Source of the DNA: an uncultured Bacteroidales bacterium
Lineage (GTDB): Bacteria > Bacteroidota > Bacteroidia > Bacteroidales > ML635J-15
DNA length: 62,875 nt
Assembly (NCBI GenBank): GCA_964527535.1
Contig: CAZGPW010000206.1
Location: forward strand, 1 to 62,875
Direction: 5' to 3'
Below, piece by piece: positions 25,603-62,875 of the stretch (position 1 is its first letter; the number at the start of each line of letters is the position of its first letter). The translations under genes were made by a program, and so were the position numbers. The notes beneath the pieces are model-generated. The model ran no database searches and was not told the DNA's origin. It saw nothing but the letters and a program-made list of their open reading frames with translations.

Positions 25603-26121
25603 ATGTTAGGTGAAATTCTGCAAATTACAATCCCGGCGTTGTTGGTAATGGCTACTGCCGTTTATATGATGCAACATCAATCAAAGAAAGACCATGAATT
25701 AAAATTAACCGAACTTGCCATGGACAATCAAAAAACAATTACTCCACTCCGTTTGCAGGCCTACGAACGCGTGGTGATTTTTCTGGAAAGAATAACGCCA
25801 AACAGTATCGTATTCAGGTTGCAAACGCCCACGATGACAGCAGACCAATTGCACAAAGAAATGCTGGAACTTATCAGGGCAGAATATGAGCACAATTTAT
25901 CGCAGCAACTGTATTTGTCCAATCATGCATGGGGACAAGTTAAGCAAGCCAAAGAATTGACAATAAAACTCATCAACGAAGCGGCTGAAAATGTTAAACC
26001 CAATGATAACGCCATACAATTGAGCCGTGAAATTTTTGATAAGCTTGTGGAATTTGAGAAGGCTCCTACTCATGAAGCCATTGACACACTAAAAGAAGAG
26101 ATACACAAACTGTTTACCTGA
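25603..26121 (+). CDS. hypothetical protein with N-terminal TM helix
   Basis: 172-aa ORF, one N-terminal hydrophobic helix, helical remainder. No recognised motif. Confidence 0.5.
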   Translation: MLGEILQITIPALLVMATAVYMMQHQSKKDHELKLTELAMDNQKTITPLRLQAYERVVIFLERITPNSIVFRLQTPTMTADQLHKEMLELIRAEYEHNLSQQLYLSNHAWGQVKQAKELTIKLINEAAENVKPNDNAIQLSREIFDKLVEFEKAPTHEAIDTLKEEIHKLFT

Positions 26122-26396
26122 TTGTGTGGTAAATATTCTTGATGAGCCACATCAAAATAGTTTACAGGCAATACATCTATATATTGTTGTTTCCCGTTTC
26201 GAACTCCATGTTTTTGCACTATTATACTTCCACAGTTTATGCATTTTTTTTATTCGTAAGCGTTGATTTGTTTCAAAGATAGTGTTTTCACGTCATTCCG
26301 AAGATTATAGCCTACTTTTTGTCCATTAAGCCTAAATTTTAAATGCATCGTGTATGCAAATAATACGGATTATTTTTAAAATAAGTTGCAAAAAGC

Positions 26397-26590
26397 GGTT
26401 CTACTGCAAATTTTGTGCAACCAAGGGCAGAGCCAAGCCGCCGTCCTGCGATGTACTGCGATGTGTTGAGCGAAGCCGAAACAAGCGCAGTCGAAGTAAG
26501 CGAAGTCGAAGGGCGATGTCCTGAGCGCAGTCGAAGGGTTGCTTGAGCTATGCCGGGAGCGATGTATTGAGCGATGTCGAAATGCAGCCA
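26397..26590. repeat. GC-rich degenerate tandem word repeat (unit gcgatgtNNtgagcgNNgNcgaa)
   Basis: Units at 26458-26480, 26513-26535 and 26559-26581. 26448-26488 matches 59268-59308 at 37/41 positions. Confidence 0.75.
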
Positions 26591-26709
26591 AAATTATTCA
26601 ATTTTAATGGGTTATGATTAGCTGCCTGTTTACCTGATCTTTTTGTGATACCATTAGTTTTCCTTTCTACCTTTCGAAAACAGGAAAATAATTACCTTTT
26701 CTAGGTGAG

Positions 26710-26798
26710 CCTATGTGACCTACTGTGGTTCAAAAACTTGGAAACATCTCAGGTTGGAACCACATAGGCACAGTAGAACACATAGGAATTCACATAGG
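26710..26798. repeat. imperfect inverted repeat built from cctatgtg/cacatagg and ctactgtg/cacagtag words
   Basis: Left arm 26710-26731 'cctatgtgacctactgtggttc'. Right arm 26757-26786 'gaaccacataggcacagtagaacacatagg'. A third cacatagg lies at 26791-26798. Confidence 0.7.
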
Positions 26799-26992
26799 AT
26801 TAGCGATAAAAATCATCTGGCTAAACATTGAATGGATTAAAGAAAATTAGAATAAATAATTAAAATCACATGAATTATTAGCTTTAGGTATTCCTGGTTT
26901 TCCACTAAGTTTGCAGTTGAACACAAAAAGTTAAGATTATCTATGAAACCGGTGGCTGTTTGGTCAGTGATTCATTCCGAAGTGATTGATTT

Positions 26993-29770
26993 TTATGCAT
27001 TGAGTTTGCCTTTCAGGTATTGTCCTGTATAAGATTGGTTGCACTTGCTCAAATCTTCAGGTGTTCCTGCAAAAATAAGCTGCCCCCCTTTATCACCACC
27101 CTCAGGACCGAGATCAATTACCCAATCTGCCGACTTAATTATTTCGGGATTATGTTCAATAATCAATATGCTGTGGCCTCTGTTTTTAAGTTGTTCAAGG
27201 GATGAGAGCAATTTGTGGATGTCATGAAAATGCAAGCCGGTAGTTGGTTCATCAAAAATAAACATAGCCGGCGTCTGGGTTTCGTTACTCAGGTATGAAG
27301 CCAGCTTAATGCGTTGACTTTCCCCTCCACTGAGTGTATTTGAAGCTTGCCCCAATTTCAGATACCCCAACCCCACTTTCAGGTAATTATTCAGCAGTTT
27401 TACAATTTGTTTTTCACGGGAACCTGGGTTGGAAAAGAATTCCACAGCCTGATTTATTGTCATATCCAAAATATCCGCAATATTTTTTCCACCATATTTT
27501 ACTTCAAGGATTTCATTTTTAAACCGTTTTCCCCCACACTCTTCGCATGTCAGATAAACATCAGCCATGAATTGCATTTCAACCCTTATCCTGCCCTCCC
27601 CTTTACAGGCTTCACAACGGCCTCCATCAACATTAAACGAAAAGTATGCAGGTTTGTATTCCCTTTGTTTTGATAACTTTTGTTCAGCAAACAACCGCCT
27701 GACATCATCCCACGCCTTGATGTACGTAACCGGATTGGAACGCGATGATTTGCCAATGGGATGCTGATCAACGTACTGTATATCTGTTATCAATGAAAAA
27801 TCACCCTCTGAGGATTTATGCAATCCCGGCTTAGCTGCGTTATTCCCTGTTTTTCGTTGTATCACAGGCGTAATAATATCCCTGACAAGTGTACTTTTAC
27901 CAGAACCACTGACTCCGGTAACCACACACATCACCTGCAGGGGCAATTCCAGTTTTTCAATCTTCAGGTTATGTTGCCGTGCCCCATAAAAGCGAAGGCT
28001 ATTCTGCCATTGCTTTCTTTTCTCAGGCACTGGAATATGACGCTTGTGATTCAGGTATTCAGCCGTAATTGAGCCAGATGCGTTTAAAAATTGTTTTAAA
28101 GGGCCATTGAAGATAATTTCTCCACCTTGATAACCTGCTCCGGGCCCAATGTCAACAATGTGATCAGATTCCCTGATGACAGCTTCTTCGTGTTCAACAA
28201 CAACAACCGTATTCTGAAGATCACGCAAATTTTTCAACAGGTCGGTAAGCAAATGGGTGTCGCGCGGGTGCAAGCCTACAGAGGGTTCATCAAGAATATA
28301 AAGTGAGCCAACCAGGGCACTGCCCAGCGACGTCACCAAATTGATCCTTTGGGTTTCGCCACCGGATAAACTGGCGGCATGACGATTAAGCGTAAGGTAT
28401 GGTACTCCAACTTTGATCATGAACCTTAACCGGTTAACAATCTCTGTGAGAATCCTGTCAGCTATTTGATGCTCACGTTGGCTGAGTTTAATGGAATCAA
28501 CAAAATCCAACAAATGTTCTGCACTCATATCCACCAGTTCAGGGACACTTTTTTTATTCACTTTTACCCATGAAGTTTCTTTTTTCAGCCGCTTTCCGTG
28601 ACAGGCAGGACATACGGTACGTCCTCTGTATCGTGACAACATCACACGGTATTGGATTTTATATTTCTTTTTATCGAGGTACTTGAAAAAATCATTTATT
28701 CCGTAAAAAGCACTGCATCCCTCCCACAACATACTTTTTTGTTCCTCTGTCAGATCAATATACGGCCGGTGTACCGGGAAATTCACGCTGGAAGCATTGA
28801 TGACAAGCTGATCTTTCCACTTTTTCATTTTATCCCCTTTCCAGGCAACCACACAATCTTCCCATACAGATAAGTGAGGATTAGGAACAACAAGCTCCTC
28901 ATCAATACCGATAACACTTCCGTATCCTTCGCATTCAGGACATGCCCCGACAGGATTGTTAAAAGAAAACATGTGCTCTGTAGGTTCTTCAAACCGTATT
29001 CCGTCTTCTTCAAACACATTGGAAAAACTTCGTTGATTAAATTTTTCTTTAAATTCAGTTACGATGACGCATTTGCCTTCTCCTTCCTTAAACGCCATTT
29101 CTGCAGAATCCCTGATCCGGCTTTGAACAGATTTGTCCCGCTTATTTTTCAACCTGTCAAGCACAACACATACCGAATTTTTACTTACTTTTTCGTTTTT
29201 TAATTCATCAATTTTCCGAATACGCCGGTCAATCCATAAACGCCGGAACCCTTTCACCCTCAGGTTTTCCAGAAAGTTTTCCTGACTGTCACCGGCTACA
29301 TCCAGTGGAAAACAAATATAAATTTTACTGTCTTCAGGCTTGTCATCCAAGTATTCCACCACATCATTAACGTTCTGTTTTTTAACCAGTTTTCCGGAAA
29401 CAGGTGAGTATGTTTTCCCAATGCGGGCATACAGTAGTTTAATGTAATCGTATATTTCCGTCATGGTACCTACCGTTGAACGGGACGACCTTGACCCCAC
29501 TTTTTGCTGTATTGCTATGGCAGGAGGAATACCGCTTATCATATCGGCTTCCGGTTTACTGAGCCTGCCAAAAAACTGGCGGGCATAAGATGACAGGCTT
29601 TCAATGTAACGGCGCTGGCCTTCTGCGTACAACGTATCGTACACCAAACTGGATTTTCCTGACCCTGAAAGCCCTGTTACCACAATAAGTTTATCATAAG
29701 GGATGGTAAGGTCAATTCCTTTCAGGTTATGAACGCGGACATTTTTTAATATTATTCCTTGTTTAGTCAT
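26993..29770 (-). CDS. uvrA: excinuclease ABC subunit A
   Basis: 925 aa. 'GLSGSGKSSLVYDTLYAEGQRRYIESLSSYARQF', two ABC modules, zinc-finger CxxC pairs. Confidence 0.93.
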   Translation of the reverse strand: MTKQGIILKNVRVHNLKGIDLTIPYDKLIVVTGLSGSGKSSLVYDTLYAEGQRRYIESLSSYARQFFGRLSKPEADMISGIPPAIAIQQKVGSRSSRSTVGTMTEIYDYIKLLYARIGKTYSPVSGKLVKKQNVNDVVEYLDDKPEDSKIYICFPLDVAGDSQENFLENLRVKGFRRLWIDRRIRKIDELKNEKVSKNSVCVVLDRLKNKRDKSVQSRIRDSAEMAFKEGEGKCVIVTEFKEKFNQRSFSNVFEEDGIRFEEPTEHMFSFNNPVGACPECEGYGSVIGIDEELVVPNPHLSVWEDCVVAWKGDKMKKWKDQLVINASSVNFPVHRPYIDLTEEQKSMLWEGCSAFYGINDFFKYLDKKKYKIQYRVMLSRYRGRTVCPACHGKRLKKETSWVKVNKKSVPELVDMSAEHLLDFVDSIKLSQREHQIADRILTEIVNRLRFMIKVGVPYLTLNRHAASLSGGETQRINLVTSLGSALVGSLYILDEPSVGLHPRDTHLLTDLLKNLRDLQNTVVVVEHEEAVIRESDHIVDIGPGAGYQGGEIIFNGPLKQFLNASGSITAEYLNHKRHIPVPEKRKQWQNSLRFYGARQHNLKIEKLELPLQVMCVVTGVSGSGKSTLVRDIITPVIQRKTGNNAAKPGLHKSSEGDFSLITDIQYVDQHPIGKSSRSNPVTYIKAWDDVRRLFAEQKLSKQREYKPAYFSFNVDGGRCEACKGEGRIRVEMQFMADVYLTCEECGGKRFKNEILEVKYGGKNIADILDMTINQAVEFFSNPGSREKQIVKLLNNYLKVGLGYLKLGQASNTLSGGESQRIKLASYLSNETQTPAMFIFDEPTTGLHFHDIHKLLSSLEQLKNRGHSILIIEHNPEIIKSADWVIDLGPEGGDKGGQLIFAGTPEDLSKCNQSYTGQYLKGKLNA

Positions 29771-49574: not shown

Positions 49575-50126
49575 ATGTCAAGAACAGGTAATTTACCAAT
49601 TCAAATACCGGAAAAAGTCACCGTGGAGGTGAAAGGAAATCTTGTTACCGTAAAAGGACCGGTAGGAGAATTAGAACAGGAAGTCAATAAAGAATTGAAA
49701 ATCAACAAGGATGATAACCAAATCGTGTTGGAAAGACCATCTGAGGCAATCAGACACAAAGCCATGCACGGATTGTATCGCTCACTTCTTGCCAATATGA
49801 TTGAAGGGGCATCAAAAGGCTTTTCAGAAAAACTCGAACTGGTAGGCGTTGGTTTTAAAGCCGAGAATAATGGTCAATTGATTGATTTTGCACTTGGGTA
49901 TTCTCACCATATTTATTTTGAAATGCCACCTGAAATTGAGGTGGAATGCAAAACTGAAAAAAGAAAAAATACAATCATTACCCTCAAAAGTGCCGATAAA
50001 CAATTGCTGGGCCAGGTCGTTGCAAAAATTAGAGCACTCAGGCCACCTGAACCCTATAAAGGTAAAGGAATCCGGTTTGTGGGTGAAGAAATCAGGAGAA
50101 AAGCTGGTAAAACAGCCAGTGTATAA
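49575..50126 (+). CDS. rplF: 50S ribosomal protein L6
   Basis: 'MSRTGNLPIQIPEKVTVEV...PEPYKGKGIRF'. Internal ATG used; the tracked ORF start at 49536 overlaps rpsH. Confidence 0.94.
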   Translation: MSRTGNLPIQIPEKVTVEVKGNLVTVKGPVGELEQEVNKELKINKDDNQIVLERPSEAIRHKAMHGLYRSLLANMIEGASKGFSEKLELVGVGFKAENNGQLIDFALGYSHHIYFEMPPEIEVECKTEKRKNTIITLKSADKQLLGQVVAKIRALRPPEPYKGKGIRFVGEEIRRKAGKTASV

Positions 50127-50144
50127 TTTTTAACATCAATTGTT

Positions 50145-50501
50145 ATGTCAAATAAAAAATTAACAAGCAGACAAAGAATTCGTAAAAGCATCCGGGGAAA
50201 AATCTCAGGAACTACTGAAAAACCCAGGTTGGCTGTGTTTCGTTCTAATAAACACATCTCTGCGCAGATCATCAATGATGATAAAGGTGTTACCTTAGCT
50301 GCTATTACATCAAAAGCAAAAGATCTGGCAGACCTTAAAGGAACAAAATCTGAAGTGGCACAGAAAACGGGGGAGGCTTTTGCTAAAATAGCCATTGAAG
50401 AAGGAATCTCAACCGTTGTGTTTGACAGAAGTGGATATAAATATCATGGACGTGTGAAAGCTTTTGCTGAAGGCGCCAGAAAAGGAGGCTTAAAATTTTA
50501 A
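50145..50501 (+). CDS. rplR: 50S ribosomal protein L18
   Basis: '[17 protein letters not shown]...[20 protein letters not shown]'. Confidence 0.95.
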
Positions 50502-50506
50502 ATATT

Positions 50507-51022
50507 ATGACATTAAACGTAAAAAAAGTTAAAGCCAGCGACCTCGATCTGAAAGACAGATTGGTTGCTATTAACAGAGTAACAAAAGTAACCAAAGGTG
50601 GACGTAACTTTGCCTTTGCTGCTATTGTTGTGGTTGGTAATGAAGAAGGTGTTGTCGGACATGGTTTGGGTAAAGCCGGAGAAGTCGCTTCTGCCATTGA
50701 AAAAGCTGTGGAAGATGCTAAAAAGAATCTGGTAAAGATGCGCCTTTATTCCAATACAATACCTCACGAGCAAACAGCAAAGTACAGCGGAGCTAAAATA
50801 TGGCTGAAACCTGCATCTCCGGGTACGGGTGTAGTAGCCGGTGGTGCAATGCGTGCTGTGCTGGATAGCGTGGGTATTAAAGACGTACTCGCCAAATCCA
50901 AAGGTTCAGCAAATCCTCATAACCTTGTTAAAGCTACTATGAAGGCCCTTTTGGAAATGAGAGACCCTGTTACAGTGGCCGAACACAGAGGAATTTCACT
51001 CGAAAAAGTGTTTAACGGATAA
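50507..51022 (+). CDS. rpsE: 30S ribosomal protein S5
   Basis: '[24 protein letters not shown]'. Confidence 0.96.
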
Positions 51023-51038
51023 GATAATTTTGATTGTT

Positions 51039-51221
51039 ATGGCAAAAGTGAAAATTACCCAGTTCAGAAGCAGTATAAACTGCAATAAAAAACAAAGAGA
51101 TACTCTGAAAGCTCTCGGATTAAAAAGAATGCATCAGAGTGTTGTGCATGAGGTAAGCCCTCAGATAAGTGGTATGGCTAAAGCAGTCAGCCATCTTGTG
51201 AAAAAAGAAGATGTTAAATAA
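51039..51221 (+). CDS. rpmD: 50S ribosomal protein L30
   Basis: 'MAKVKITQFRS...TLKALGLKR'. First ATG used; tracked ORF starts at TTG 51030. Confidence 0.92.
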   Translation: MAKVKITQFRSSINCNKKQRDTLKALGLKRMHQSVVHEVSPQISGMAKAVSHLVKKEDVK

Positions 51222-51237
51222 TTAAGATCAGTGTAAA

Positions 51238-51687
51238 ATGGATTTAAGCTCATTAAAACCAGCAAAAGGATCAAATAAACCGGATGGAAAACGCTTCGGA
51301 CGTGGCGAAGGTTCCGGAAAAGGAGGTACCGCCACACGTGGACATAAAGGCGCTAAATCCAGATCCGGGTATTCCAGAAAATTGGGGTTCGAAGGTGGAC
51401 AAATGCCACTCCAGAGAACCAGCCCAAAATATGGATTTAATAACATTAACCGAAAAGTATATAAACCTGTAAATGTAGCCAGGCTTCAGGAAATAGCCGA
51501 GAAACATAAACTCGAAACCATTGATGTGGAAGTATTGGTGAAATACGGCGCTGTAAAACCTAATAAGCTTGTGAAAATTCTTGGCAATGGCGAAATTAAA
51601 TCAAAAGTCAATGTCAAAGCGCATGCTTTTTCTGAATCGGCAACTAAAAAAATTGAAAAGCTTGGTGGAACTGTAGAAAAATTGTAA
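51238..51687 (+). CDS. rplO: 50S ribosomal protein L15
   Basis: 'GRGEGSGKGGTATRGHKG...GFEGGQMPL'. Confidence 0.95.
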   Translation: MDLSSLKPAKGSNKPDGKRFGRGEGSGKGGTATRGHKGAKSRSGYSRKLGFEGGQMPLQRTSPKYGFNNINRKVYKPVNVARLQEIAEKHKLETIDVEVLVKYGAVKPNKLVKILGNGEIKSKVNVKAHAFSESATKKIEKLGGTVEKL

Positions 51688-51690
51688 AGG

Positions 51691-53031
51691 ATGAAACGAT
51701 TAGTTGAAACAATCAGAAATATTTGGCGTATTGAGGACTTGCGTAAACGGATCCTTACAACTTTGGGTCTTATCTTGATCTACAGACTCGGTAGTCATGT
51801 CGTTTTACCAGGTGTTGATCCCAATATGCTGGCAGGCCTTCAACAACAAACATCCAAAGGGGTGCTCGGCTTGCTTGATATGTTCTCAGGCGGTGCTTTT
51901 TCAAGAGCTTCTGTGTTTGGGTTGGGGATTATGCCTTATATTTCGGCTTCAATTGTTGTTCAACTTCTTGGCATTGCAGTGCCTTATTTTCAACGACTGC
52001 AGCGGGAAGGCGAAAGCGGCAGAAAACGGATAAACCAGATAACAAGATACCTTACCGTTGGTATTTTACTGCTCCAGGCACCTTCTTATATTGCTAATCT
52101 ACATTCACAGTTGCCGCCCGAAGCGTTTGCCATCAGGGGGCCTTTGTTTACCATCAGTTCTGTTATTATTCTTACTGCCGGCACCATGTTCGTTATGTGG
52201 CTTGGCGAACGCATTACCGATAAAGGCATAGGTAACGGTATCTCACTGATCATCATGATTGGTATTATTGCCCGAATGCCATTGTCTTTTGCCCAGGAAG
52301 TCGTGTCACGTTTTACAGCACAAGCAGGAGGCCTTATCATGTTGCTCGTGGAAATTGTAATCCTATTCGTGATCTTTATGCTTACCATTGCACTTGTGCA
52401 AGCCGTTCGCAGGATTCCTGTACAATACGCAAAACGCGTTGTCGGCAACAGGCAATACGGTGGCGTTAGGCAATATATCCCGCTTAAAGTAAATTCAGCA
52501 GGGGTAATGCCCATCATTTTTGCCCAGGCATTGATGTTTGTGCCCATTATGATATCCGGATTTAGCGATTCTGATGCCATGAGCCGATTTGGGGCAGCAT
52601 TTGCCGATTATACCGGATTCTGGTATAACGCTGTGTTTGCAATAATGATTATTTTATTTACCTACTTCTATACGGCTGTTACTGTGAATCCGCAGCAAAT
52701 GGCTGAAGATATGAAGAAAAACGGCGGCTTTATACCTGGTGTGAAACCTGGTAAGAAAACCGTTGAATTTATTGATACTATAATGTCACGTATTACATTG
52801 CCCGGATCAATATTCCTGGCAGTAGTGGCTATAATGCCTGCATTTGCAATCCTGGCAGGAGTAAACAATCAGTTTGCCCAATTTTATGGGGGAACTTCTT
52901 TGCTTATCCTTGTCGGTGTTGTGCTTGATACATTGCAACAAATCGAGTCACACCTGATGATGAGACATTATGACGGATTGACAAAATCAGGCAGAATTAA
53001 AGGCAGGGGCCAAACAGCTTCAGCCTTGTAA
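51691..53031 (+). CDS. secY: preprotein translocase subunit SecY
   Basis: 446-aa polytopic protein. 'LGIMPYISASIVVQLL', position after rplO. Confidence 0.96.
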   Translation: MKRLVETIRNIWRIEDLRKRILTTLGLILIYRLGSHVVLPGVDPNMLAGLQQQTSKGVLGLLDMFSGGAFSRASVFGLGIMPYISASIVVQLLGIAVPYFQRLQREGESGRKRINQITRYLTVGILLLQAPSYIANLHSQLPPEAFAIRGPLFTISSVIILTAGTMFVMWLGERITDKGIGNGISLIIMIGIIARMPLSFAQEVVSRFTAQAGGLIMLLVEIVILFVIFMLTIALVQAVRRIPVQYAKRVVGNRQYGGVRQYIPLKVNSAGVMPIIFAQALMFVPIMISGFSDSDAMSRFGAAFADYTGFWYNAVFAIMIILFTYFYTAVTVNPQQMAEDMKKNGGFIPGVKPGKKTVEFIDTIMSRITLPGSIFLAVVAIMPAFAILAGVNNQFAQFYGGTSLLILVGVVLDTLQQIESHLMMRHYDGLTKSGRIKGRGQTASAL

Positions 53032-53041
53032 ATGTTCTTTG

Positions 53042-53830
53042 ATGATATATTTAAAAACAGAGGAAGAAATTGAAATGATGCGGGAAAGTAACCGGATAGT
53101 GTCTATGACACATGCCGAAATTGCTCGGGTCATTAAGCCCGGAATGACTACCATCGCCATTGATAAACTTGCTGATGAGTTTATCAGGGATATGGGAGCT
53201 GTACCAGGCTTTTTGAACTATTCCGGCTTCCCGAATTCAGTTTGTATCTCTGTTAACGATGTGGTTGTTCATGGAATCCCGGATGATACAGCACTTGAAG
53301 ACGGAGATATCGTCTCCATTGATATTGGCGCCGTAAAAAATGGATTCAATGGTGACTCATGTTTTACTTTCGAAGTTGGAACGGTTTCTGATCAAGTGAA
53401 ACATCTATTGAGAATAACCAGAGAATCCTTGTATAAAGGGATCGAAATGGCTGTCAACGGAAACCGCATTGGTGATATCGCACACGCTATACAACAACAT
53501 GCCGAAAATAACGGGTATGGAGTTGTCAGGGAATTGGTTGGCCATGGAATTGGCAAAAACCTGCACGAAGAACCCGAAGTCCCAAATTTTGGACGTAAAG
53601 GAACAGGACATAAATTGCAGCGTGGAATGTGTATTGCCATCGAACCCATGATCACCATGGGAAAACGGTTTATCCGGCAGGAAAAGGATGGCTGGACCAT
53701 TCGGACAACAGACCATAAACCAGCTGCTCATTTTGAGCATACCGTGGCAATCACTAAAGGAAAAGCTGATATCCTGTCGGATTTCAGTATTATTGATAAA
53801 GCAGTTGAACAAAATAAATTAAATAAATAA
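53042..53830 (+). CDS. map: type I methionine aminopeptidase
   Basis: 'VVHGIP...GDIVSIDIG...GHGIG...FAIEPM'-type metal ligands. Second ATG preferred. Confidence 0.94.
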   Translation: MIYLKTEEEIEMMRESNRIVSMTHAEIARVIKPGMTTIAIDKLADEFIRDMGAVPGFLNYSGFPNSVCISVNDVVVHGIPDDTALEDGDIVSIDIGAVKNGFNGDSCFTFEVGTVSDQVKHLLRITRESLYKGIEMAVNGNRIGDIAHAIQQHAENNGYGVVRELVGHGIGKNLHEEPEVPNFGRKGTGHKLQRGMCIAIEPMITMGKRFIRQEKDGWTIRTTDHKPAAHFEHTVAITKGKADILSDFSIIDKAVEQNKLNK

Positions 53831-53833
53831 ATT

Positions 53834-54052
53834 ATGGCGAAACAACCTTCGATTGAACAAGATGGAACAATACTTGAAGCATTGTCAAACGCTATGTTCA
53901 GAGTAGAACTTGAAAACGGACATGTGATAACAGCTCATATCTCCGGCAAAATGAGAATGCATTACATCAAAATTTTGCCCGGTGACAGAGTGAAAGTTGA
54001 AATGTCTCCGTATGATTTAACCAAAGGAAGAATTACGTTTCGTTATAAATAA
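53834..54052 (+). CDS. infA: translation initiation factor IF-1
   Basis: 72 aa. '[31 protein letters not shown]'. Confidence 0.96.
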
Positions 54053-54081
54053 ATAAACAAATAAAATGGAAGGAATACGAT

Positions 54082-54198
54082 ATGAAAGTTAGAGCATCCG
54101 TTAAAAAAAGATCCGCTAATTGTAAAATCGTCAGGCGCAAAGGAAGGGTGTACCTTATTAATAAGAAAAACCCTAAATTTAAAATGCGTCAGGGGTAA
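54082..54198 (+). CDS. rpmJ: 50S ribosomal protein L36
   Basis: Not in the ORF track (38 aa). Hand translation [38 protein letters not shown]. Canonical position between infA and rpsM. Confidence 0.9.
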
Positions 54199-54240
54199 TG
54201 ATTAAAATGATTGTGAATTAATAAAAACAAATAATACATT

Positions 54241-54612
54241 ATGGCAAGAATCGCTGGTGTTGATGTACCAAACAACAAGAGAGGAGAAATCGCTCTCACT
54301 TATATTTACGGAATTGGGAAAAGCCGGGCCAAAGAAATCTTAACAAAAGCCGACGTGGACCCGAATATTAAATCCAATGACTGGACTGACGATCAATTGG
54401 CAGCCCTCAGGAATGTGATGGAAGACTACATTGTCGAAGGAGAACTCAGATCACGCGTTCAGATGGATATCAAACGCCTTATGGACATTGGAGCATACAG
54501 GGGTATTCGTCATCGTACAGGCTTACCCCTGAGAGGGCAAAATACTAAAAACAATGCCCGCACACGTCGTGGTAAAAAGAAAACCATCGCAGGTAAAAAG
54601 AAAGCTATTTAA
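54241..54612 (+). CDS. rpsM: 30S ribosomal protein S13
   Basis: '[14 protein letters not shown]...[15 protein letters not shown]'. Confidence 0.96.
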
Positions 54613-54627
54613 TACATTTTTAATGAT

Positions 54628-55020
54628 ATGGCAAAAAAGAAAACAAAAGTTACAAGAAAACGTATTGTCAGAGTGGATACAATGGGGCAAGCTCATATTC
54701 ATTCGTCGTTTAACAATATTATCATTAGCCTCACCAACAGTGATGGACAGGTTATAAGCTGGTCTTCATCTGGAAAAAGAGGCTTCAGAGGAAGTAAGAA
54801 AAACACACCTTATGCTGCCCAGGTGGCTGCTGAAGAATGTGCAAAAGTGGCTTACGATGCTGGCATGAGAAAAGCAAAGGCTTATGTCAAAGGCCCCGGT
54901 TCCGGACGCGAATCTGCTATGAGAGCTATTCATAATACTGGAATCCAAATTACCGAGATTATTGATGTGACACCATTGCCCCACAATGGTTGCAGACCAT
55001 CAAAAAGAAGAAGAGTTTAA
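54628..55020 (+). CDS. rpsK: 30S ribosomal protein S11
   Basis: '[18 protein letters not shown]...[12 protein letters not shown]'. Confidence 0.96.
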
Positions 55021-55039
55021 TAATTTAATTGATTGATTC

Positions 55040-55648
55040 ATGGCTAGATACAGAGGACCAAGAACAAAAATTGCCAGAAAAATTGGTGAACCCATTTACG
55101 GACCGGATAAATACTTTGAAAAAAAGAATTATCCACCCGGACAACATGGTAATAACAGAAGAAGACGTAAAGTTTCAGAGTACGGCACGCAACTTAAAGA
55201 GAAACAAAAAGCCAAATATACCTATGGTGTGTTGGAAAGACAGTTTTTAAATATTTACAAAAAAGCCAATAGCGCCAAAGGTGTTACTGGTACTGTTTTG
55301 CTTCAGTTACTCGAATCAAGGCTCGATAATGTGGTTTTCAGACTGGGCATTGCACCAACAAGACAGGCTGCAAGACAACTCGTTACACACAGGCATATTG
55401 TGGTTAACGGAAACGTACTGAACATCCCTTCAGCACGCGTCAGAGCAGGTGATATTGTGGGTGTGCGTGAGCGTTCCAAAGCACTGGATGTCATCACCGA
55501 ATCACTCCAGTCTGCTAACCATGGAAAATTTTCATGGCTGGAATGGGACCAAGACCAAATGGCCGGCAAATTTTTAAATTTGCCCCAACGGGAAGAAATA
55601 CCCGAAAATATTGAAGAACAGTTAATTGTTGAATTATATTCTAAATAA
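55040..55648 (+). CDS. rpsD: 30S ribosomal protein S4
   Basis: '[14 protein letters not shown]...[10 protein letters not shown]'. Confidence 0.96.
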
Positions 55649-55665
55649 TCCATAACCCTATATTT

Positions 55666-56661
55666 ATGGCTATTATACCTTTTCAGAAACCGGATAAAGT
55701 CGTCATGCTTGAAGCTGACGGTTATACAGGAAAATTTGAGTTTAAACCACTTGAACCCGGATATGGCATTACCATTGGAAATGCCTTAAGGCGAATTCTC
55801 TTGTCCTCGCTCGAAGGATTTGCTATCACCAATATAAAAATTGATGGCGTTGATCATGAATTTTCAACCATCAAAGGAATAATCGAAGACGTTACAGAGA
55901 TTATCCTGCAACTTAAGCAAGTGAGGTTCAAACAGCAAATTGATGATTTCGACGGGGAAAAAATTACCGTTAACGTTTCAGGGCAAAATGTCTTTAAAGC
56001 TGGCGATATTGGTAAATTTCTTACCGGATTCAAAATCCTGAATCCCGATCTCGAAATCTGTCATATGGAACCTGATGTAGCCTTAAAAATGGATATTACC
56101 GTAAGCAAAGGCAGAGGATATGTACCCCCGGAAATGAACACACCGGAAGAGGATGAAGAAATTGGCATTATCCCCATTGGTTCTGTATTTACACCTATCC
56201 GTAATGTACAATATACCATCGATAACATGAGGATAGAACAAAAAACGGATTTTGAAAAACTGATCCTGGAAATTGAAACCGATGGATCTGTGGAACCAAA
56301 AGAAGCTCTCAAAGAAGCTGCTAAAATTCTGATCCAGCATTTCATGCTCTTTAGCGATGAAAAAATTACCCTGGATGAAGATGAAAGCCCCGGGAATGAA
56401 GAATTTGATGAAGAAGTGTTGCACATGAGGCAATTGCTCAAAACCAAACTCGTTGATCTGGACCTCTCTGTCAGAGCACTCAACTGCCTCAAAGCAGCCG
56501 ATGTTGAAACCCTCGGAGATTTGGTTCAATACAATAAAACCGATCTTTTGAAATTTAGAAATTTCGGTAAAAAATCACTGAATGAACTCGAAGACCTGTT
56601 GGATAACCTCAATCTGGATTTTGGTCTTGATACATCGAAATATAAGTTGGACAAGGAATAA
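55666..56661 (+). CDS. rpoA: DNA-directed RNA polymerase subunit alpha
   Basis: '[17 protein letters not shown]'. C-terminal '[20 protein letters not shown]'. Confidence 0.96.
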
Positions 56662-56672
56662 ATTGATTTGTG

Positions 56673-57500
56673 ATGAGACATAGAAAGTCATTTAACCATT
56701 TGGGAAGAACCCCTGCACATCGTAAAGCCATGTTAAGCAATATGGCTGCATCGCTTATAATACATAAACGTATTAATACAACATCAGCTAAAGCCAAGGC
56801 ACTGAAAAAGTATGTGGAACCATTGATTACAAAGGCAAAGGAAGACAATACTCATAACAGAAGAATGGTATTTAAGAAATTACAGGACAAAGATGCGGTG
56901 TCTGAACTTTTCCGGAATATCGTTGTGAAAATTGGAGAGCGTCCGGGTGGATACACACGTATCCTGAAAACTGTAAATCGACTTGGCGATAACGCAGAAA
57001 TGTGCATCATTGAACTCGTTGATTACAACGAAAATATGCTGGCCGCCAAAGAAGAAGAAACATCCAAAAAGAAACGCAGCAGGCGTGGTGGAAGACGCGG
57101 AGGCTCTAAGAAAAAAGCGGAGCAAACGGATAAACAAACCGAAAGTGCCGCCAAAGAACAACAGCAAGAAAAAGCGGCGGAAGAAAAACCCCCGGCTAAA
57201 GCTGAAACGGATACTGAAGCTAAACAGGGTGCTGAAAAGGAGAAAGAACAAAAGCCTGAAAAACCCGAAACCGGTAAAGAAGCTAAGGCTGACACCGAAG
57301 ATGCTAAAAAGCCCAAAGAAAAGAAAACTGAAGAAGCTGATTCCCATAAAAGTGAGCCCCAGGCTAAAGAAAAACCCGCTGAGGAGAAAAAAGAAACAGC
57401 CAAACCTGAGGCCAAAACAAAAAAAGAAGATTCAGCTGACAATAAACAAAAAGATACCCCAAAAGACAAAAAGGACGATAAAAAAAACAGCGAATCCTAA
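56673..57500 (+). CDS. rplQ: 50S ribosomal protein L17 with about 150-aa Lys/Glu-rich C-terminal extension
   Basis: '[21 protein letters not shown]' core, then a low-complexity KEAPT tail from about 57051. Confidence 0.93.
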
Positions 57501-57524
57501 CCTCCTCCTGTCCAGGATCGCTGC

Positions 57525-57590
57525 AAAAACCTTGTTGTTTTATGCCTCCCTGTGACGGATAAGATAATGAGGTTTTTTGTTTTTATATCT
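57525..57590 (+). terminator. possible intrinsic terminator after rplQ
   Basis: aaaaacct (57525-57532) pairs with aggttttt (57570-57577), followed by a T-run 'tttttgttttt'. The stem is A/U-rich with a long loop, so this is weak. Confidence 0.25.
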
Positions 57591-57700
57591 GAACATTATA
57601 AACCCTTTGTTTGTTGCTAATAATAAACATATACGGGATATTCTAAGGGAATAATCCCCGATTTTATCGAATGTTGTATTCAGATGATATTTTTTTATAA

Positions 57701-59020
<1,320 letters not shown>

Positions 59021-59046
59021 AATATAACGGATTAATTAACTTCCTT

Positions 59047-59344
59047 TTTTTATTTGGGCAGCGGAATCAGGTGTGCCTTTATTTTACATTATCTCCGCCT
59101 ACGCCTGCTACCACCTACCGTTGATGCCTGTTTTTGCAACACTGCAGAACAGGAGTTTCGCCTGTCACTCTGCCTGCAGTGCAAAAACACAGCCATCACC
59201 GGCAGCAGGGTATCCGTCTCCGGCGGGCTGCAGAAAGTGACATGCCACCTGCTGAACCACCTGTCAGGCGATGTAGTGCGATGTGTTGAGCGGTGTCGAA
59301 ACAAGCGCTGCCGAACTATCAGCCATCATTACCTTTCGAAGTTG
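59047..59344. repeat. GC-rich hairpin-dense non-coding segment
   Basis: Extended hairpin 59130-59188. The word gcgatgtgttgagcggtgtcgaa (59278-59300) is shared with the 26.4-kb locus. Confidence 0.65.
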
Positions 59345-59704
59345 TTGCAGCAAAAACCCCGTCCTTTAGGCGGGGTGGTTCAAAGCAACAGTATTGCAGC
59401 AGTGTTTTTACCCCGCCAGCCAATTGCCACCAACGGTGGTTTGACGAACTCTAAGCGATGCCGATGCTATTATAACAGGTGAGCAGCTTGTACAGGCTGA
59501 AGGCCTGCGATACCAAAGCTTGGGGCAACGCCCCAAGTGATACAAGACCCAGCCGTAAGCAGGCTGAAGGCCTGCGATAATCACCTGACCACGAAGTGGT
59601 CAAACATGAATAACCACGGGTACAACCCGTGGTGTGACACCACCCCACACCGTAACTTTTGGCATGTGTTTTTGCTTTTCTGCAAAAACCATGACAAAAG
59701 CGGC
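59345..59704. repeat. hairpin-chain repeat, copy 1 (arms 59345-59450 and 59587-59704, split by a 136-nt insert)
   Basis: Aligns in the same orientation with 61103-61327. Stems: ccacc/ggtgg, gaccac/gtggtc, ccacggg/cccgtgg (59614-59632), gtttttgc/gcaaaaac (59668-59689). Confidence 0.8.
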
Positions 59705-59757
59705 ATATTACTGCACTAGTATAGGCGGCTGGAGGATTTGACGATTCTCTAAAATAA

Positions 59758-60893
59758 CTACTTGATTTTAAAATAAAAATGCCTTAACCAATAGTGATAC
59801 ATTGGGTCTAGAATCGTAATTGAATTATCAAACAAATCTACAATTTCTTTATTTTCGAGACTGGATTTAATTCTGGAAACATTTGCAGACGTGCCAAGAT
59901 TATAGGTATCAATAACATCTTTTGAGCTTAAATGTGTTTCCCCGGAAATTAAAGCTTTTAAAAAGTTGACCTGTGTATTACTTAAACCATCGGTGAGTTT
60001 TTGAAACAAATAATCTAATTGCAATATCAAGCTCTCGTGTGCATTTAATACAATTTCTTTGGTGCATTCAATAGACGTTCTTAACCAAACAAGTTGAGCC
60101 AATTGTTGCACATAATAAGGATGACATTCAGCCATGTCAATAATCATTTCAGCAAGATTTTTGTCAATCTTTTTCCCTGTATCTTTAAATCGCTTAATAA
60201 CAAACTTTCGAAGTGCAGTTTTTTCAATTTTTTGTAAAAACAAAATATCCCCAAATTTATAAAACGGCATTGATGATGACGTAAATACATGCATTAACAT
60301 GTGCCGTTTACTACCGTATAAGCAGTACGTTACGTTTTTATGCTTCTGCCAGTTAGCCCTGAGCTTTTTCTGTATAGCCAGCGAATCCCCAAAACTGGAG
60401 ATATTCTGAAACTCATCAATACAGATTACAAACCTGAAGTTCTTTTCTTTTGCGATGTTTTCTGCTAAATTCAGAATTTCATCGGGATTCTTCTTAACTT
60501 CATTCCAGTTAAAACTAATGCTGAACTCATTGTTTGATTCGGGACTAAATGATAAATTGGGAACCAATCTACCCAGAAATTTACCTGCTTTTTCGATGAT
60601 CTCTTCAACTTTTGTATTCGATTGTAGCAATACATTTTTTGCCAGTAAAATATAGAACTCCTCTTCTGTGCGGACATTAAATAAATCAATGAAAACAAAC
60701 CTCAGTTGTTTGTCTTTCTTTTTGGATAGTTTAGCAGATTTTACAACCAACGATGATTTTCCCCAGCGTCTTGGAGAAATTAAAATGGTATTTATTCCTG
60801 AGGTAAATTTGTAGTTAGCCTTAATGATTCATTTTCCCTGTTTGTGAAATTTGAATCGTAAGCAATTTTTCCAAATGTAAATGGCGTTGTCAT
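59758..60893 (-). pseudogene. AAA ATPase (archaeal-ATPase/PF01637-like) with interrupted reading frame
   Basis: ATG at 60893 gives MTTPFTFGKIAYDSNFTNRENESLRLTTNLPQE*, with the stop at 60792-60794. The -1 frame continues ...TSGINTILISPRRWGKSSLVVKSAKL... (Walker A) into tracked ORF 59758-60750, whose 'M' is really a TTG Leu. Confidence 0.75.
60804..60810 (-). other. A_AAT_TTA heptamer at the frame break of the ATPase gene
   Basis: In the zero frame the mRNA reads ac[A AAT TTA] cct cag gaa taa, which fits the X_XXY_YYZ pattern. A -1 slip joins directly to the Walker-A frame. Confidence 0.3.
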
Positions 60894-60908
60894 GATTAAA
60901 GATTTGTG

Positions 60909-60916
60909 CAAATATA
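60909..60916 (-). promoter_or_regulatory. possible -7 promoter box (TATATTTG) for the ATPase gene
   Basis: Exact TAnnTTTG match on the minus strand, 16 nt upstream of the ATG at 60893. Confidence 0.3.
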
Positions 60917-61102
60917 CAAACAATTAAGTAACTAACCTAAATATAACTAACTTTTTTGTAACATACATAAAGGTTAGTTGTATTGTGCATGGATTATAAA
61001 TCGGTAGCTTTAAGATACTGCCTGGCAAGCTCTGTTGTAGCTTTATCATTCAACCTGTTTCGAATAAACTCAACACACCGCTTTCAGGGATGTGGAGGAC
61101 GC

Positions 61103-61327
61103 TTGCAGCAAAAACCCCGTCCTTTAGGGCAGTGTGGTTAAAAGCAACAGCATTCAAAAGGGCTTTAGCCCCGCCAGCCAATTGCCACCAACGGTGGTTT
61201 GACAAACTGACCACGAAGTGGTCAAACATGAATAACCACGGGTGAAACCCGTGGTGTGACAAACACCCACCCCGGTAGCTTTTGCCATGTGTTTTTGCTT
61301 TTTTGCAAAAACCATGACAAAAGCGGC
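61103..61327. repeat. hairpin-chain repeat, copy 2 (uninterrupted, about 225 nt)
   Basis: Same-orientation match to 59345-59450 plus 59587-59704. Hairpins at 61209-61223, 61236-61254 and 61291-61312. Confidence 0.8.
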
Positions 61328-61412
61328 TTTCAATGTAAATAACATGAAAAAACTTTTTTAGTTCTAATTATAATTAGTAAATTAGCAAAATAATACAAAC
61401 CATGCTTTGAAT

Positions 61413-62687
61413 ATGAAAAATGCTTTAGTATTACATAATGCGCATTGGAATAACAAAAAATATTCTGTAAAGATCAAACGTGAACTTCTGGAAAGTTTGA
61501 AAAAGCTGAATTCTATTAAAGAAATTCAGATAATTTCCGGATTAAGGAGAAGCGGCAAATCCTCCATAATGAAGCTTTATATTAATTGGCTCATGGAAAC
61601 TGAAGATCCCAAATCATTATTGTTTGTAAATCTGGATGACCCTTCCTTTTCTGAGACATATAATAATCCGGCTCTTTTTCATAAACTTATTGAGCATGCT
61701 GAAACAATCACAGGAATCAAAGTAAAATATTTATTTATTGATGAAATACAGAATGTTAAGGGATGGGAAAAATACCTCAAAAGCGTATATGATGCCGAAA
61801 GATTTAAAAAAATATGCATTAGCGGATCAAATTCCAGGTTATTAAATTCTGATTATTCAGCATTGTTGTCAGGAAGATATGTTTTGCATCAATTATTCCC
61901 CTTGTCTATCAATGAAATATTAACATATTACAAGCTTAATGACAACCTGAGTATAACGCAAAATCAGCCAAAAGTTAATAATGTTTTGACAGATGCATTA
62001 AAATCAGGTTGTTTTCCGGAAATTGTTTTACAGGAAGAAAATGACATTAAACACGAGATTTTGATATCCTATTATGACAGCATCATAATTAAAGATTGTA
62101 TAATCAATAAGGATATAAGGGATTATCGCTTATTTAAGCAGATTTCATATTACGTTTTCAATAACACAGCCGCTTTATACTCTTACAATAGTTTATCTAA
62201 AGCATTAAATGTAAACGATATAACCATTAAAGAATACATTAATGCAATGAAGGATGCATATTTGATTTATGAGATACCACAGTTTAGTTACAAATTAAAG
62301 AAACAGATAAAGTCCCGAAGAAAATTGTATTCAATAGATAACGGATTAATTAATATCGTATCGTTAAATTTTTCAGAGAACAAAGGCAAATTGTTTGAGA
62401 ATATGGTTTTTGCAGAGTTAAAAAAAGCGGGGATTAATGAGATATATTTATTAAATGATACGAAGGAATGTGATTTCATTATTCGTCATAAAAATATAAT
62501 CTATTCAATACAGGCCTGTTATGAATTAACTTCTGCTAACAAAGAAAGAGAAATAAGTGGCTTATTATATGCAAATGACAAATACAAAATTGATAAATCG
62601 TTTATTGTCACATTTTCGCAGTCTGAAATAATAGAAAATGAAATAACTGTAATGCCTGTTTATGAATTGCGAAGAAAATTAGGATAA
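61413..62687 (+). CDS. AAA ATPase of the AAA_14/DUF4143 type
   Basis: Walker A 'GLRRSGKSS', Walker B 'YLFIDEIQ'. C-terminal 'KECDFIIRHKNIIYSIQACYEL' segment. First ATG used; tracked ORF starts at TTG 61407. Confidence 0.8.
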   Translation: MKNALVLHNAHWNNKKYSVKIKRELLESLKKLNSIKEIQIISGLRRSGKSSIMKLYINWLMETEDPKSLLFVNLDDPSFSETYNNPALFHKLIEHAETITGIKVKYLFIDEIQNVKGWEKYLKSVYDAERFKKICISGSNSRLLNSDYSALLSGRYVLHQLFPLSINEILTYYKLNDNLSITQNQPKVNNVLTDALKSGCFPEIVLQEENDIKHEILISYYDSIIIKDCIINKDIRDYRLFKQISYYVFNNTAALYSYNSLSKALNVNDITIKEYINAMKDAYLIYEIPQFSYKLKKQIKSRRKLYSIDNGLINIVSLNFSENKGKLFENMVFAELKKAGINEIYLLNDTKECDFIIRHKNIIYSIQACYELTSANKEREISGLLYANDKYKIDKSFIVTFSQSEIIENEITVMPVYELRRKLG

Positions 62688-62875
62688 AGATAAACAGGTA
62701 GAAAATTAAAGTATGGGTTGCCTTAAAATGGTGATTTTAAATTAGCGGATGCGCTGTAAACTGCGTAGGCTTGTTTATCAGTGCTCGCCCCTGGGAAAAA
62801 AACAGGGGAACTTCAAAAAAGATAACTTAAATTTGTCTATGGAAATATAGCACATATGAAGTTCAAAATCCCAAA

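Follow-up and report, generated by a model that had tools for sequence, protein, structure and literature searches.

Near the end of contig CAZGPW010000206.1 of an uncultured Bacteroidales bacterium (assembly GCA_964527535.1), two direct repeats enclose a single AAA+ ATPase gene (ATPase1), and this arrangement raises the question of whether the repeats are the boundaries of a mobile unit, and by what means such a unit would move. The whole stretch of 62,875 nucleotides (nt) analysed here is referred to as the window, and an earlier annotation of it, in which the arrangement was considered to fit, among other readings, a cassette bounded by recombination sites, as the original prediction. The favoured reading, to which an even chance is given, is that the repeats are clusters of hairpin modules similar to repetitive extragenic palindromes (REPs) and act as attL/attR-like boundaries of a small mobile ATPase1 cassette, on which a transposase of the Y1 type would operate. 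A second cassette, carrying a candidate defence gene of the PDC-S01 type (ATPase2), abuts the first, and the functional core of the repeat is its 3' part, the B-half.

Structure and conservation of the bracketing repeats

Both repeat finding and blastn recovered the coordinates and the common orientation that had been reported for the repeats. The A-halves (59345-59450 and 61103-61208) are direct copies with 87.9% identity (E from ~1e-27 to 2e-27, blastn), and the B copies (59585-59704 and 61207-61327) are direct copies with 91-92% identity (E from ~1e-36 to 5e-36). As described, they enclose exactly one gene, the frame-broken ATPase at 59758-60893 on the minus strand. No third copy was found in the window by blastn, and a covariance model run with its filters off scored 75.5 bits on copy 2, 74.7 bits on copy 1 and 12 bits on the next match. 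With the 55 or so genes that the window holds, chance placement would put two copies around the same gene with a probability of roughly 0.04. The repeat unit is not a single 225-nt block but a mosaic of an A-half, an optional nested hairpin insert of 136 nt and a B-half, with the following parts.

59345 to 59450, plus strand: A-half of copy 1, ending with the small hairpin CCACC-AAC-GGTGG and then TTTGACGAACT.
59451 to 59586, plus strand: insert, a 136-nt nested hairpin element present in copy 1 only, with two CAGGC-TGAAG-GCCTG-CGATA units.
59587 to 59704, plus strand: B-half of copy 1, 91.7% identical to copy 2, composed of hairpin H1 (59587-59601), linker (59602-59613), hairpin H2 (59613-59633), a spacer and hairpin H5 (about 59656-59700).
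61103 to 61208, plus strand: A-half of copy 2, directly abutting H1 (…CAAACT/GACCAC…).
61209 to 61327, plus strand: B-half of copy 2, with H1 (61209-61223), linker (61224-61235), H2 (61235-61255) and H5 (about 61278-61324).

In the B-half, the order is thus H1 (GACCAC-GAA-GTGGTC), the 12-nt linker AAACATGAATAA, H2 with a 9-bp stem, a spacer of about 25 nt and H5 with a stem of about 20 bp. When folded as single-stranded DNA (ssDNA) and compared with shuffled sequences, the B-half reaches z values from -6 to -7.4 over copies and strands (copy 1, -7.2 on the plus and -6.0 on the minus strand) and the insert a z of -3.1, so that the description of the unit as a chain of hairpins holds for these two parts. 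It does not hold for the A-half, which folds no better than shuffled sequence (z = -0.8 and +1.5) and was matched outside the window in one related contig only (L045), where a single copy (185-291) is 97.2% identical to the second and 88.9% to the first A-half of the window; for these two reasons the A-half was dropped as a candidate for the functional core. The observation that the copies differ in hairpin loops while the stems stay intact was confirmed for H2 (TACAA versus TGAAA) and H5 (TTTTCT versus TTTTTT). The insert element is found immediately 5' of H1 also in L001, L011 and, twice, in L045, with 92-94% identity. All module copies are intergenic.

An assembly artefact, that is, a collapsed or duplicated repeat, might be suspected, as only about 190 nt of the contig follow ATPase2 and short contigs are common among the related ones. 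The two copies differ, however, at 8-12% of positions and by the 136-nt insert, and the two-copy layout was reproduced in independent samples and assemblies (L045, L026, L040/L041 and L005 together with L011), which leaves this explanation a practically negligible probability.

The part of the B-half made of H1, linker and H2, with H1 in the form GACCAC-NNN-GTGGTC, is not confined to the window. A scan of 185,579 species-representative genomes, with a pattern covering H1 and part of the linker, returned at least 13 loci, and all those listed belong to Bacteroidota, their hosts being two Bacteroidales metagenome-assembled genomes (MAGs), Emticicia, Spirosomataceae, Saprospiraceae and one Bacteroidia MAG; at least nine further loci came from a metagenome scan. 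As the search patterns prescribed H1 and part of the linker, the conservation of both in these loci is in part built in. The remainder of the linker, which lies outside the pattern, is also conserved across them, and H2 keeps its pairing while its sequence changes (CACGGG/CCCGTG, CCGAAT/ATTCGG, CATAGAT/ATCTATG, CCAGAAT/ATTCTGG). Moreover, H1 covaries in modules located independently of the pattern beside genes for Y1 transposases (AGTCC/GGACT, AATCCC/GGGATT, GAGCC/GGCTC, GAAGCCC/GGGCTTC). In an alignment of 26 sequences, 93.7% of the cells pair, against 29-42% in controls with slid partners, both partners change in nine of the 13 pairs and the observed covariation score is not reached by any shuffle, while the linker AAACATGAATAA is nearly invariant; the bases 5' of H1 vary, and the conserved part is the linker on its 3' side. 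Judging from these alignments, the core module is composed of two hairpins selected for shape and a linker selected for sequence, a combination that is the signature of a protein-recognised site in ssDNA (or RNA).

The module is also rare. In control loci, enolase among them, that add up to about 100 kb, the covariance model found no match, and the strict pattern gives one to four loci per genome, a lower bound in the absence of a complete genome from the source lineage. Far from being numerous and unassociated with particular genes, the copies in this lineage are few and lie beside ATPase genes. In some genomes (L008) modules form inverted doublets. Two tandem arrangements were also noted. 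At 4481-5147 of L010, at least 8.5 copies of an 80-nt unit with H1, linker and H2 form an array directly upstream of a gene for a 910-amino-acid protein; a CRISPR-like nature of this array was ruled out, as the whole 80-nt unit is conserved and variable spacers are lacking. At 5440-6090 of L032, about 10 tandem units of AACCCC-GAA-GGGGTT plus GAACATCAATAAC, with a period of about 50 nt, are located immediately downstream of a Y1 gene of subclass 1.2.

Hairpins in intergenic DNA could also act in cis on RNA or transcription, as terminators, insulators or mRNA-stabilising structures copied along with the ATPase genes, and classical REPs are known to act so (PMC3733652). In favour of this explanation, the reverse complement of H2 followed by TATTCATGTT on the minus strand scores as intrinsic-terminator-like in both copies, and the ATPase1 stop codon is followed by copy 1 after 54 nt. 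On the other hand, the B-half has the orientation of ATPase2 and the opposite one to ATPase1 and to a third bracketed ATPase gene (ATPase3), and in L010 and L013 it precedes divergent genes; the arrays of L010 (at least 8.5 copies) and L032 (about 10 copies) are not terminator-like; and a generic U-tract would not hold a 12-nt sequence invariant across orders. Furthermore, no Rfam family was matched by the whole window at gathering thresholds, and a permissive search of 58900-61500 gave only sub-threshold matches at chance level (Trp_leader, 27.9 versus 41 bits; Acido-Lenti-1, 24.8 versus 37 bits). A purely cis-acting role is therefore quite unlikely, and the suggestion of paired regulatory RNAs in the original prediction finds little support for the same reasons of orientation and family matches. 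A transcriptional role may nevertheless exist alongside one at the DNA level.

Occupied and empty sites of the ATPase cassettes

The relatives of the window loci were reached by homology searches, exact look-ups of the window enolase and ATPase2 having given none. Their comparison with the window divides the region into the following segments.

59021 to 59247, plus strand: non-coding DNA downstream of enolase, syntenic with the relatives, whose homology stops at 59247.
59248 to 59344, plus strand: lineage-specific junction DNA, holding a member of a second short-repeat family at 59263-59318.
59451 to 61225, no strand assigned: segment shared with L045 (~99%), consisting of the insert, B-half copy 1, ATPase1, A-half copy 2 and H1 of B-half copy 2.
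61207 to 62757, plus strand: segment shared with L001 (98.4% overall), consisting of a B-half, ATPase2 and 70 nt.
62770 to 62860, plus strand: backbone resuming after the cassettes, 92% identical to 15513-15426 of L015 in inverted orientation.

The closest relatives, one of which is the MAG CAZTNS01, encode an enolase protein 97% identical to that of the window. The backbone of the window (50000-59247) aligns with 286-9514 of L014/L015 at 85.8% nucleotide identity (91.9% for 59027-59247), and the homology stops 227 nt past the enolase stop codon. At this point the relatives have enolase, 494 nt and a pseudouridine synthase gene, with neither ATPase genes nor the core module, so that sites with and without the ATPases do exist. 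The backbone matched by 62770-62860 lies about 6 kb from enolase in the relatives, between two convergent genes. Its inverted match implies an inversion or rearrangement with respect to the relatives, at the junction of which about 3.5 kb of repeats and ATPase genes are found.

The DNA between the repeats has close copies in other places. The cargo at 59705-61102 is 99.5% identical to L045 over 1,399 nt, while the flanks beyond the shared segment differ; in L045 the neighbours are CarboxypepD_reg, TPR and sigma-70 genes, and the ATPase1 gene is intact. On this comparison, 59451-61225 appears as a recently moved or exchanged ATPase1 cassette. What is shared amounts to one whole B-half, the insert, an A-half and just the H1 of the second B-half, which does not fit the idea of one whole-unit site. 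The ATPase2 segment recurs in L001, in the MAG CAZTNS01, between guaA and an HI0933-like gene, with modules again flanking; its B part is 90.8% identical and the stretch 61328-62757 is 99.0% identical. The segment shared with L045 ends, and that shared with L001 begins, at H1 of the second B-half. In general, the edges of the segments fall at module junctions (59450/59451, which is also the left edge of the insert, 61208/61209 and the boundary of H1 and linker). The letters at the junctions (…GAACT/CTAAGCG, …CACCT/GACCAC, …AAACT/GACCAC) are suggestive of the IS200/IS605 mode of insertion, 3' of a fixed tetra- or pentanucleotide and without target duplication, but the position of the ends changes from one comparison to another and the flanks look locally duplicated.

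A similar bracketing was seen in the window, L045, L026/L040, L001, L005 together with L011, L042 and L044, and in most related loci the ATPase genes lie between direct repeats, at times of an unrelated family. ATPase3 is bracketed likewise between phoA and tgt (contig CAZTNS010000047), with the insert in one of the two flanking copies. Homologs of ATPase1 with 87-93% amino acid identity to the intact protein of L026 have a different neighbourhood in every genome sampled. Several members of the ATPase1 cluster at 90% or more are on contigs of only 1.4-1.9 kb, as expected because repeat-flanked units with multiple contexts yield short contigs in assemblies.

This succession of sites and genes recalls an integron-like cassette array, in which the repeats would be attC sites. 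The alternation of sites and genes, the repeat families specific to the lineage and the defence-type cargo resemble the arrays of sedentary chromosomal integrons. With integron cassettes, attC sites and clusters of attC sites lacking integrases (CALIN) the locus shares single-gene cassettes, structured repeats of an ssDNA type that are alike within a genome and different between genomes, and cargo related to defence. The likeness does not extend to the sites themselves: the B-half consists of three separate hairpins and not of a single long imperfect one, and the attC core sites GTTRRRY and RYYYAAC are absent from A and B on either strand, which led to the rejection of attC. Moreover, the cassettes have their own promoters and either orientation, and no integrase was seen nearby, the whole window not having been screened for integrases. 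An integron array in the strict sense is accordingly highly improbable.

A Y1 transposase as candidate partner of the modules

In L026, the order is B-half, intact ATPase1 homolog, B-half and, about 125 nt further, a Y1_Tnp gene (Pfam E = 8e-14) of which the 3' part is present, and the same distance of about 125 nt between a Y1 gene and a B copy of the ATPase1 cassette is found in L040. In L023, a full Y1 gene of 148 codons' worth of protein abuts a B copy and is bracketed by a second module variant, 'X'. According to the covariance model, this type of module occurs within about 200 nt of a Y1 gene in four of four independent contexts (L023, L029, L032 and L040). The protein scores 60.3 bits with the NCBIfam model transpos_IS200 (cutoff 55) and 27.4 bits with REP_Tyr_transpos (cutoff 80), the model of the REP-associated tyrosine transposases (RAYTs). 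With 148 amino acids, the motif GWQ and the Y motif YVKNQENHH, it fits in length and motifs the TnpA-Y1 subclass 1.2, which is defined by about 148 amino acids, the W motif WQ, the Y motif Y---Q--HH, occurrence in Bacteroidetes and Cyanobacteria and low copy number (PMC6006769); its HuH motif reads NHLH or DHLH, versus DH[IV]H tabulated for the subclass (PMC6006769).

In L029, 36 nt from the 3' end of an upstream beta-lactamase-family gene are duplicated in direct orientation (1690-1725 and 2532-2567). The duplication brackets an 840-nt segment holding three modules and the Y1 gene, and looks like an att-type or a long target duplication. The contigs L026 and L040/L041 derive from different samples, and each is a circular permutation of the other (overlaps 99.8% and 98.4% identical). 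This permutation implies a unit of about 2.4 kb, composed of Y1, B-half, ATPase1, B-half and modules; a circle, a tandem arrangement and a mis-join are all compatible with it.

Enzymes of the Y1 family recognise both ends of an element on the same strand, as in IS608-type TnpA and the TnpA-REP of Escherichia coli. A Y1 enzyme is the candidate here because the family acts on hairpins in ssDNA, its gene adjoins the ATPase1 cassette and such genes are embedded in modules (for the action of Y1 enzymes on ssDNA hairpins see also PMC6006769). By analogy, the hairpins would fold and be recognised when the DNA is in a single-stranded state, and cutting and rejoining would take place at or next to H1 and the linker AAACATGAATAA. 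A gene lying between two modules of the same strand could then leave one cluster and enter another, with a copy of the module left on each side. The modules would thus be the actual recombination sites, and the cutting would be done by a Y1 enzyme supplied in trans rather than by recombination of the RecA type.

Several observations weigh against this reading. The Y1 gene is absent from the window by sequence search, other recombinases not having been searched for by sequence, and the open reading frames within 4 kb of the repeats are enolase, rplQ and the two ATPases; the statement that no transposase is visible is therefore right for the window, and too narrow for related contigs, where Y1 adjoins the ATPase1 cassette. 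Two relatives of the Y1 protein, P0123 and P0124, are each found in one fixed neighbourhood, with the synteny of P0124 the same on 22 contigs, as is the position of the Y1 gene of L032. Subclass 1.2 is described as generally lacking terminal structures of the IS200 type and properties of insertion sequences (ISs), with the entry 'REP: no' (Quentin et al., 2018, PMC6006769), and the published description is thus one without IS properties and without cognate REPs. The module occurs in other Bacteroidota with no ATPase nearby, and a hairpin of the H1 type is missing where the ATPase2 segment ends on the right (62757). The circular permutation might have arisen in assembly, by a mis-join at B copies with 95% identity. 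Furthermore, the B copies of the window and L026 are just 77-78% identical, against 92% for their cargo. A direct repeat of 163 nt (99%) from an unrelated hairpin family encloses the ATPase1 homolog of L042, unrelated repeats of 51 nt and 59 nt (90% and 95%) enclose that of L044, and no bracket was found at L043 or at two distant (~50%) ATPase1 relatives in viral contigs. For such divergence of the flanks, duplication at the locus or homogenisation is a better explanation than fixed transposon ends, and the gradients of identity are explained equally well by homologous recombination with crossovers inside the repeats.

Classical transposon ends of a fixed left and right type are accordingly weakened as an explanation, since similar cargo is found between flanks that have diverged or been exchanged for others. 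The flanking repeats behave more like attL/attR, being either a local site copied upon integration or a pair whose likeness is maintained by conversion. On a short timescale, as between the window and L045, they do travel with the cargo. The repeat families of L042 (4734-4896 and 6264-6426) and L044 (2294-2408 and 3673-3877), marked by CTTCGAGAC and CCCTCAG motifs, have two copies each in their own locus; in L044, an extra 95-nt unit lies between the halves of one copy and mirrors the insert of the window. Another family occupies 94-1208 of L043, with four to six copies of 53-137-nt repeats (…GAAGCAATCTGTTG…GGATTGCTTC…CGCAATGACGGGG…) around a small GIY-YIG gene.

The same body of evidence has to be read with portable homology in mind, that is, with repeats dispersed in intergenic regions and RecA-type recombination between their copies, without a dedicated enzyme or site-specific cleavage. 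A direct-repeat loop-out would give a circle with one repeat that re-enters elsewhere, or incoming DNA would be exchanged through crossovers within the repeats. Crossovers of this kind are expected to leave cargo at 99-99.5% identity beside flanking repeats at 91-97%, as observed. The B pairs within a locus (91.7% in the window, 93.5% in L026, 93.3% in contig CAZTNS010000047) are closer than copies of different genomes, which suggests gene conversion, and the unrelated families bracketing the gene in L042 and L044 and the mosaic state of the repeats (the truncated B-half in L045, the optional insert) point in the same direction. However, repeats of 120-225 nt with about 90% identity are poor substrates for RecA, and this explanation does not account for the conservation of the core module across orders, with its covarying stems and nearly invariant linker, for the clustering of modules around Y1 genes or for the gain of a new repeat family on both sides of a cassette. 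Recombination alone is thus possible and rather unlikely, and the Y1 account is held at an even chance, because the enzymatic step is a predicted one, the window is without the enzyme and the gradients fit both explanations.

A wider version of the Y1 account, still less probable and put forward tentatively, would see here an integron-like shuttling of cassettes in Bacteroidota, where H1, linker and H2 serve as att sites and Y1 enzymes of subclass 1.2 move self-promoted single-gene cassettes between sites and species by a chemistry other than that of integrons, above all those of the highly abundant PDC-S01-type and PF01637-type ATPases; the 2.4-kb circle with Y1, B-half, ATPase1 and B-half would be the intermediate. 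As for the original notion of a cassette bounded by recombination sites, it came through the checks on copy number, on empty and occupied sites and on assembly, and has to be restated for a unit that is mosaic, a module that occurs also without an ATPase and sites that are predicted.

Known systems, cargo genes and genomic context

The closest parallels are with REPs, bacterial interspersed mosaic elements (BIMEs) and the REPIN-RAYT systems, with which the locus has in common short GC-rich extragenic hairpins, a conserved adjacent single-stranded motif and composite clusters, as well as, in the relatives and not in the window, a small Y1 HUH gene of single context flanked by matching hairpins. 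In contrast to them, two copies are present in 63 kb, versus 250-1,500 per genome in Pseudomonas (PMC3390384), the module has no GTAG or CGTC tag at the hairpin foot, the partner belongs to class 1, subclass 1.2, and not to the RAYT/TnpA-REP class (class 2), and the modules bracket variable genes rather than mark stable regions. With the IS200/IS605 family and the palindrome-associated transposable elements (PATEs) the likeness lies in the IS200-type transposase (by NCBIfam) and in hairpin ends of the same strand that appear as direct repeats, the H1/H2 modules being on the plus strand at both sides of ATPase1; a circular intermediate would moreover fit the permutation of L026 and L040. Here, however, Y1 lies beside and not inside the unit of B-half, ATPase1 and B-half (L026, L040), is not multi-copy and does not occur in the window, an AAA+ ATPase takes the place of TnpB or IscB as cargo, the composite flanks of 120-225 nt vary between genomes while the cargo stays similar, and no defined cleavage tetranucleotide was identified. 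The locus is thus a member neither of the REP/RAYT systems, in view of copy number, tag and transposase class, nor of the ISs, in view of the lack of an internal transposase, the cargo and the unfixed ends. From TnpA-Y1 subclass 1.2, which they resemble in length (148 amino acids), WQ, YVKNQENHH, Bacteroidetes distribution and low copy number, the present members differ by the conserved hairpin module that adjoins them in four contexts, where none is reported (PMC6006769). The pairing of subclass 1.2 Y1 enzymes with a conserved hairpin module, and the bounding of mobile single-gene cassettes of ATPases or defence candidates by such modules, appear to be new; neither was found described in a literature search of incomplete coverage.

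A vehicle of known type is unsupported: the viral contigs searched contain neither the core module nor Y1 relatives, the plasmid collection contains neither Y1 nor ATPase1 relatives, and a plasmid or phage carrier was set aside on these searches. The cargo genes of the window are as follows.

59758 to 60893, minus strand: ATPase1, a PF01637/AAA_14-type AAA+ ATPase by Pfam, with a broken frame.
60894 to 61102, minus strand: region upstream of ATPase1, with a putative Bacteroidetes-type -7 box TATATTTG, iteron-like repeats and a lineage-specific spacer.
61407 to 62687, plus strand: ATPase2, with AAA_14 and DUF4143 (Pfam E = 2.5e-30 and 2.3e-22) and a PADLOC match to PDC-S01 (E = 9.4e-102).

The frameshift of ATPase1 consists of a single C missing near 60804, the sole frame difference from the intact L045 copy of 99.5% identity, and the gene of the window is either a pseudogene or the product of a sequencing error, probably the former in the sense of a decaying, frameshifted resident; the truncated form of 330 amino acids is found on both the NCBI and the JGI versions of the contig. 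Intact homologs of 378 amino acids are P0242 (L045) and the gene of L026 (92.7% amino acid identity over the 330-amino-acid open reading frame). ATPase1 has no match in PADLOC, NCBIfam or, by sequence search, the PDB, where ATPase2 has none either. ATPase3 has the same AAA_14 and DUF4143 domains as ATPase2 (PADLOC PDC-S01 E = 3e-89) and is 23.5% identical to it. The name PDC-S01 stands for an ATPase with a fused PD-(D/E)XK domain, which ranks fourth in abundance among the defence systems and candidates of prokaryotes and is not validated (PMC12988326); DUF4143/COG1373 is included in a published survey of the PD-(D/E)XK superfamily. The strong PADLOC matches of ATPase2 and ATPase3 concern the cargo and not the repeats, and the bracketed gene ATPase1 differs from both in having no such match.

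Upstream of ATPase1, at about 60925-60970, three iteron-like GTTAGTTAC-type repeats stand just upstream of a TAnnTTTG-type sequence, presumably the -7 box according to the known Bacteroidetes consensus. The region is conserved before all ATPase1 homologs (L026, L042-L045), and in L043 (2899-2979) and L044 (2433-2492) the GTTAGTTAC-type repeats have a period of 15 nt, with three to four repeats per site. They may be an operator for autoregulation. It could further be asked whether the bracketing repeats are binding sites of the ATPases themselves, which by analogy with initiators and repeat-flanked origins would act as AAA+ and winged helix-turn-helix proteins on hairpin or cruciform DNA. That three different ATPase families are bracketed, that weak ORC/Cdc6-like and STAND-like Pfam matches exist and that the GTTAGTTAC repeats precede every ATPase1 homolog would agree with this. 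The same ATPase1 (87-93% amino acid identity) is flanked, however, by unrelated repeat families or by none, and the module is present without ATPases in other genomes, which makes such a role very unlikely.

The cassettes follow the end of a ribosomal-protein operon (rpoA, rplQ) and enolase (57734-59020). After enolase come about 700 nt of non-coding DNA with 50-56% GC, versus about 32% in the genes after it, then ATPase1 (59758-60893, minus strand), 510 nt of non-coding DNA and ATPase2 (61407-62687, plus strand). No tRNA or tmRNA gene that could be an integration target was found in the window. A long near-perfect hairpin at 59128-59192 (GTTTTTGCAACACTGCAG…CTGCAGTGCAAAAAC), 3' of enolase and kept in the empty site of the relatives, is probably the enolase terminator region; the relatives also retain an H5-like hairpin immediately before the next gene. 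The second short-repeat family is present at 26420-26600 as tandem GCGATGT…TGAGCG…GTCGAAG units in a large intergenic region (26121-26993), and one unit is common to the DNA just upstream of repeat copy 1, where 59263-59318 resembles 26443-26498 (84% over 56 nt, E = 3e-10, blastn). The rplQ (L17) reading frame at 56670-57500 encodes 276 amino acids, with a C-terminal tail of about 130 residues rich in Lys, Glu and Ala, and the L17 proteins of the relatives are likewise long (264-271 amino acids).

If the Y1 account is true, subclass 1.2 of these enzymes gains a cognate DNA partner, a two-hairpin module spread across Bacteroidota, and a hairpin-bounded cassette architecture would be recognised, distinct from both integrons and classical ISs. 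It would also provide a route by which single-gene cassettes of AAA+ ATPases, including PDC-S01, spread and change position; in the present comparison such cassettes are 99% identical between genomes whose backbones are 14% apart. This would matter for the annotation of MAGs, whose assemblies are broken by such units, and for the understanding of how defence genes are shuffled.

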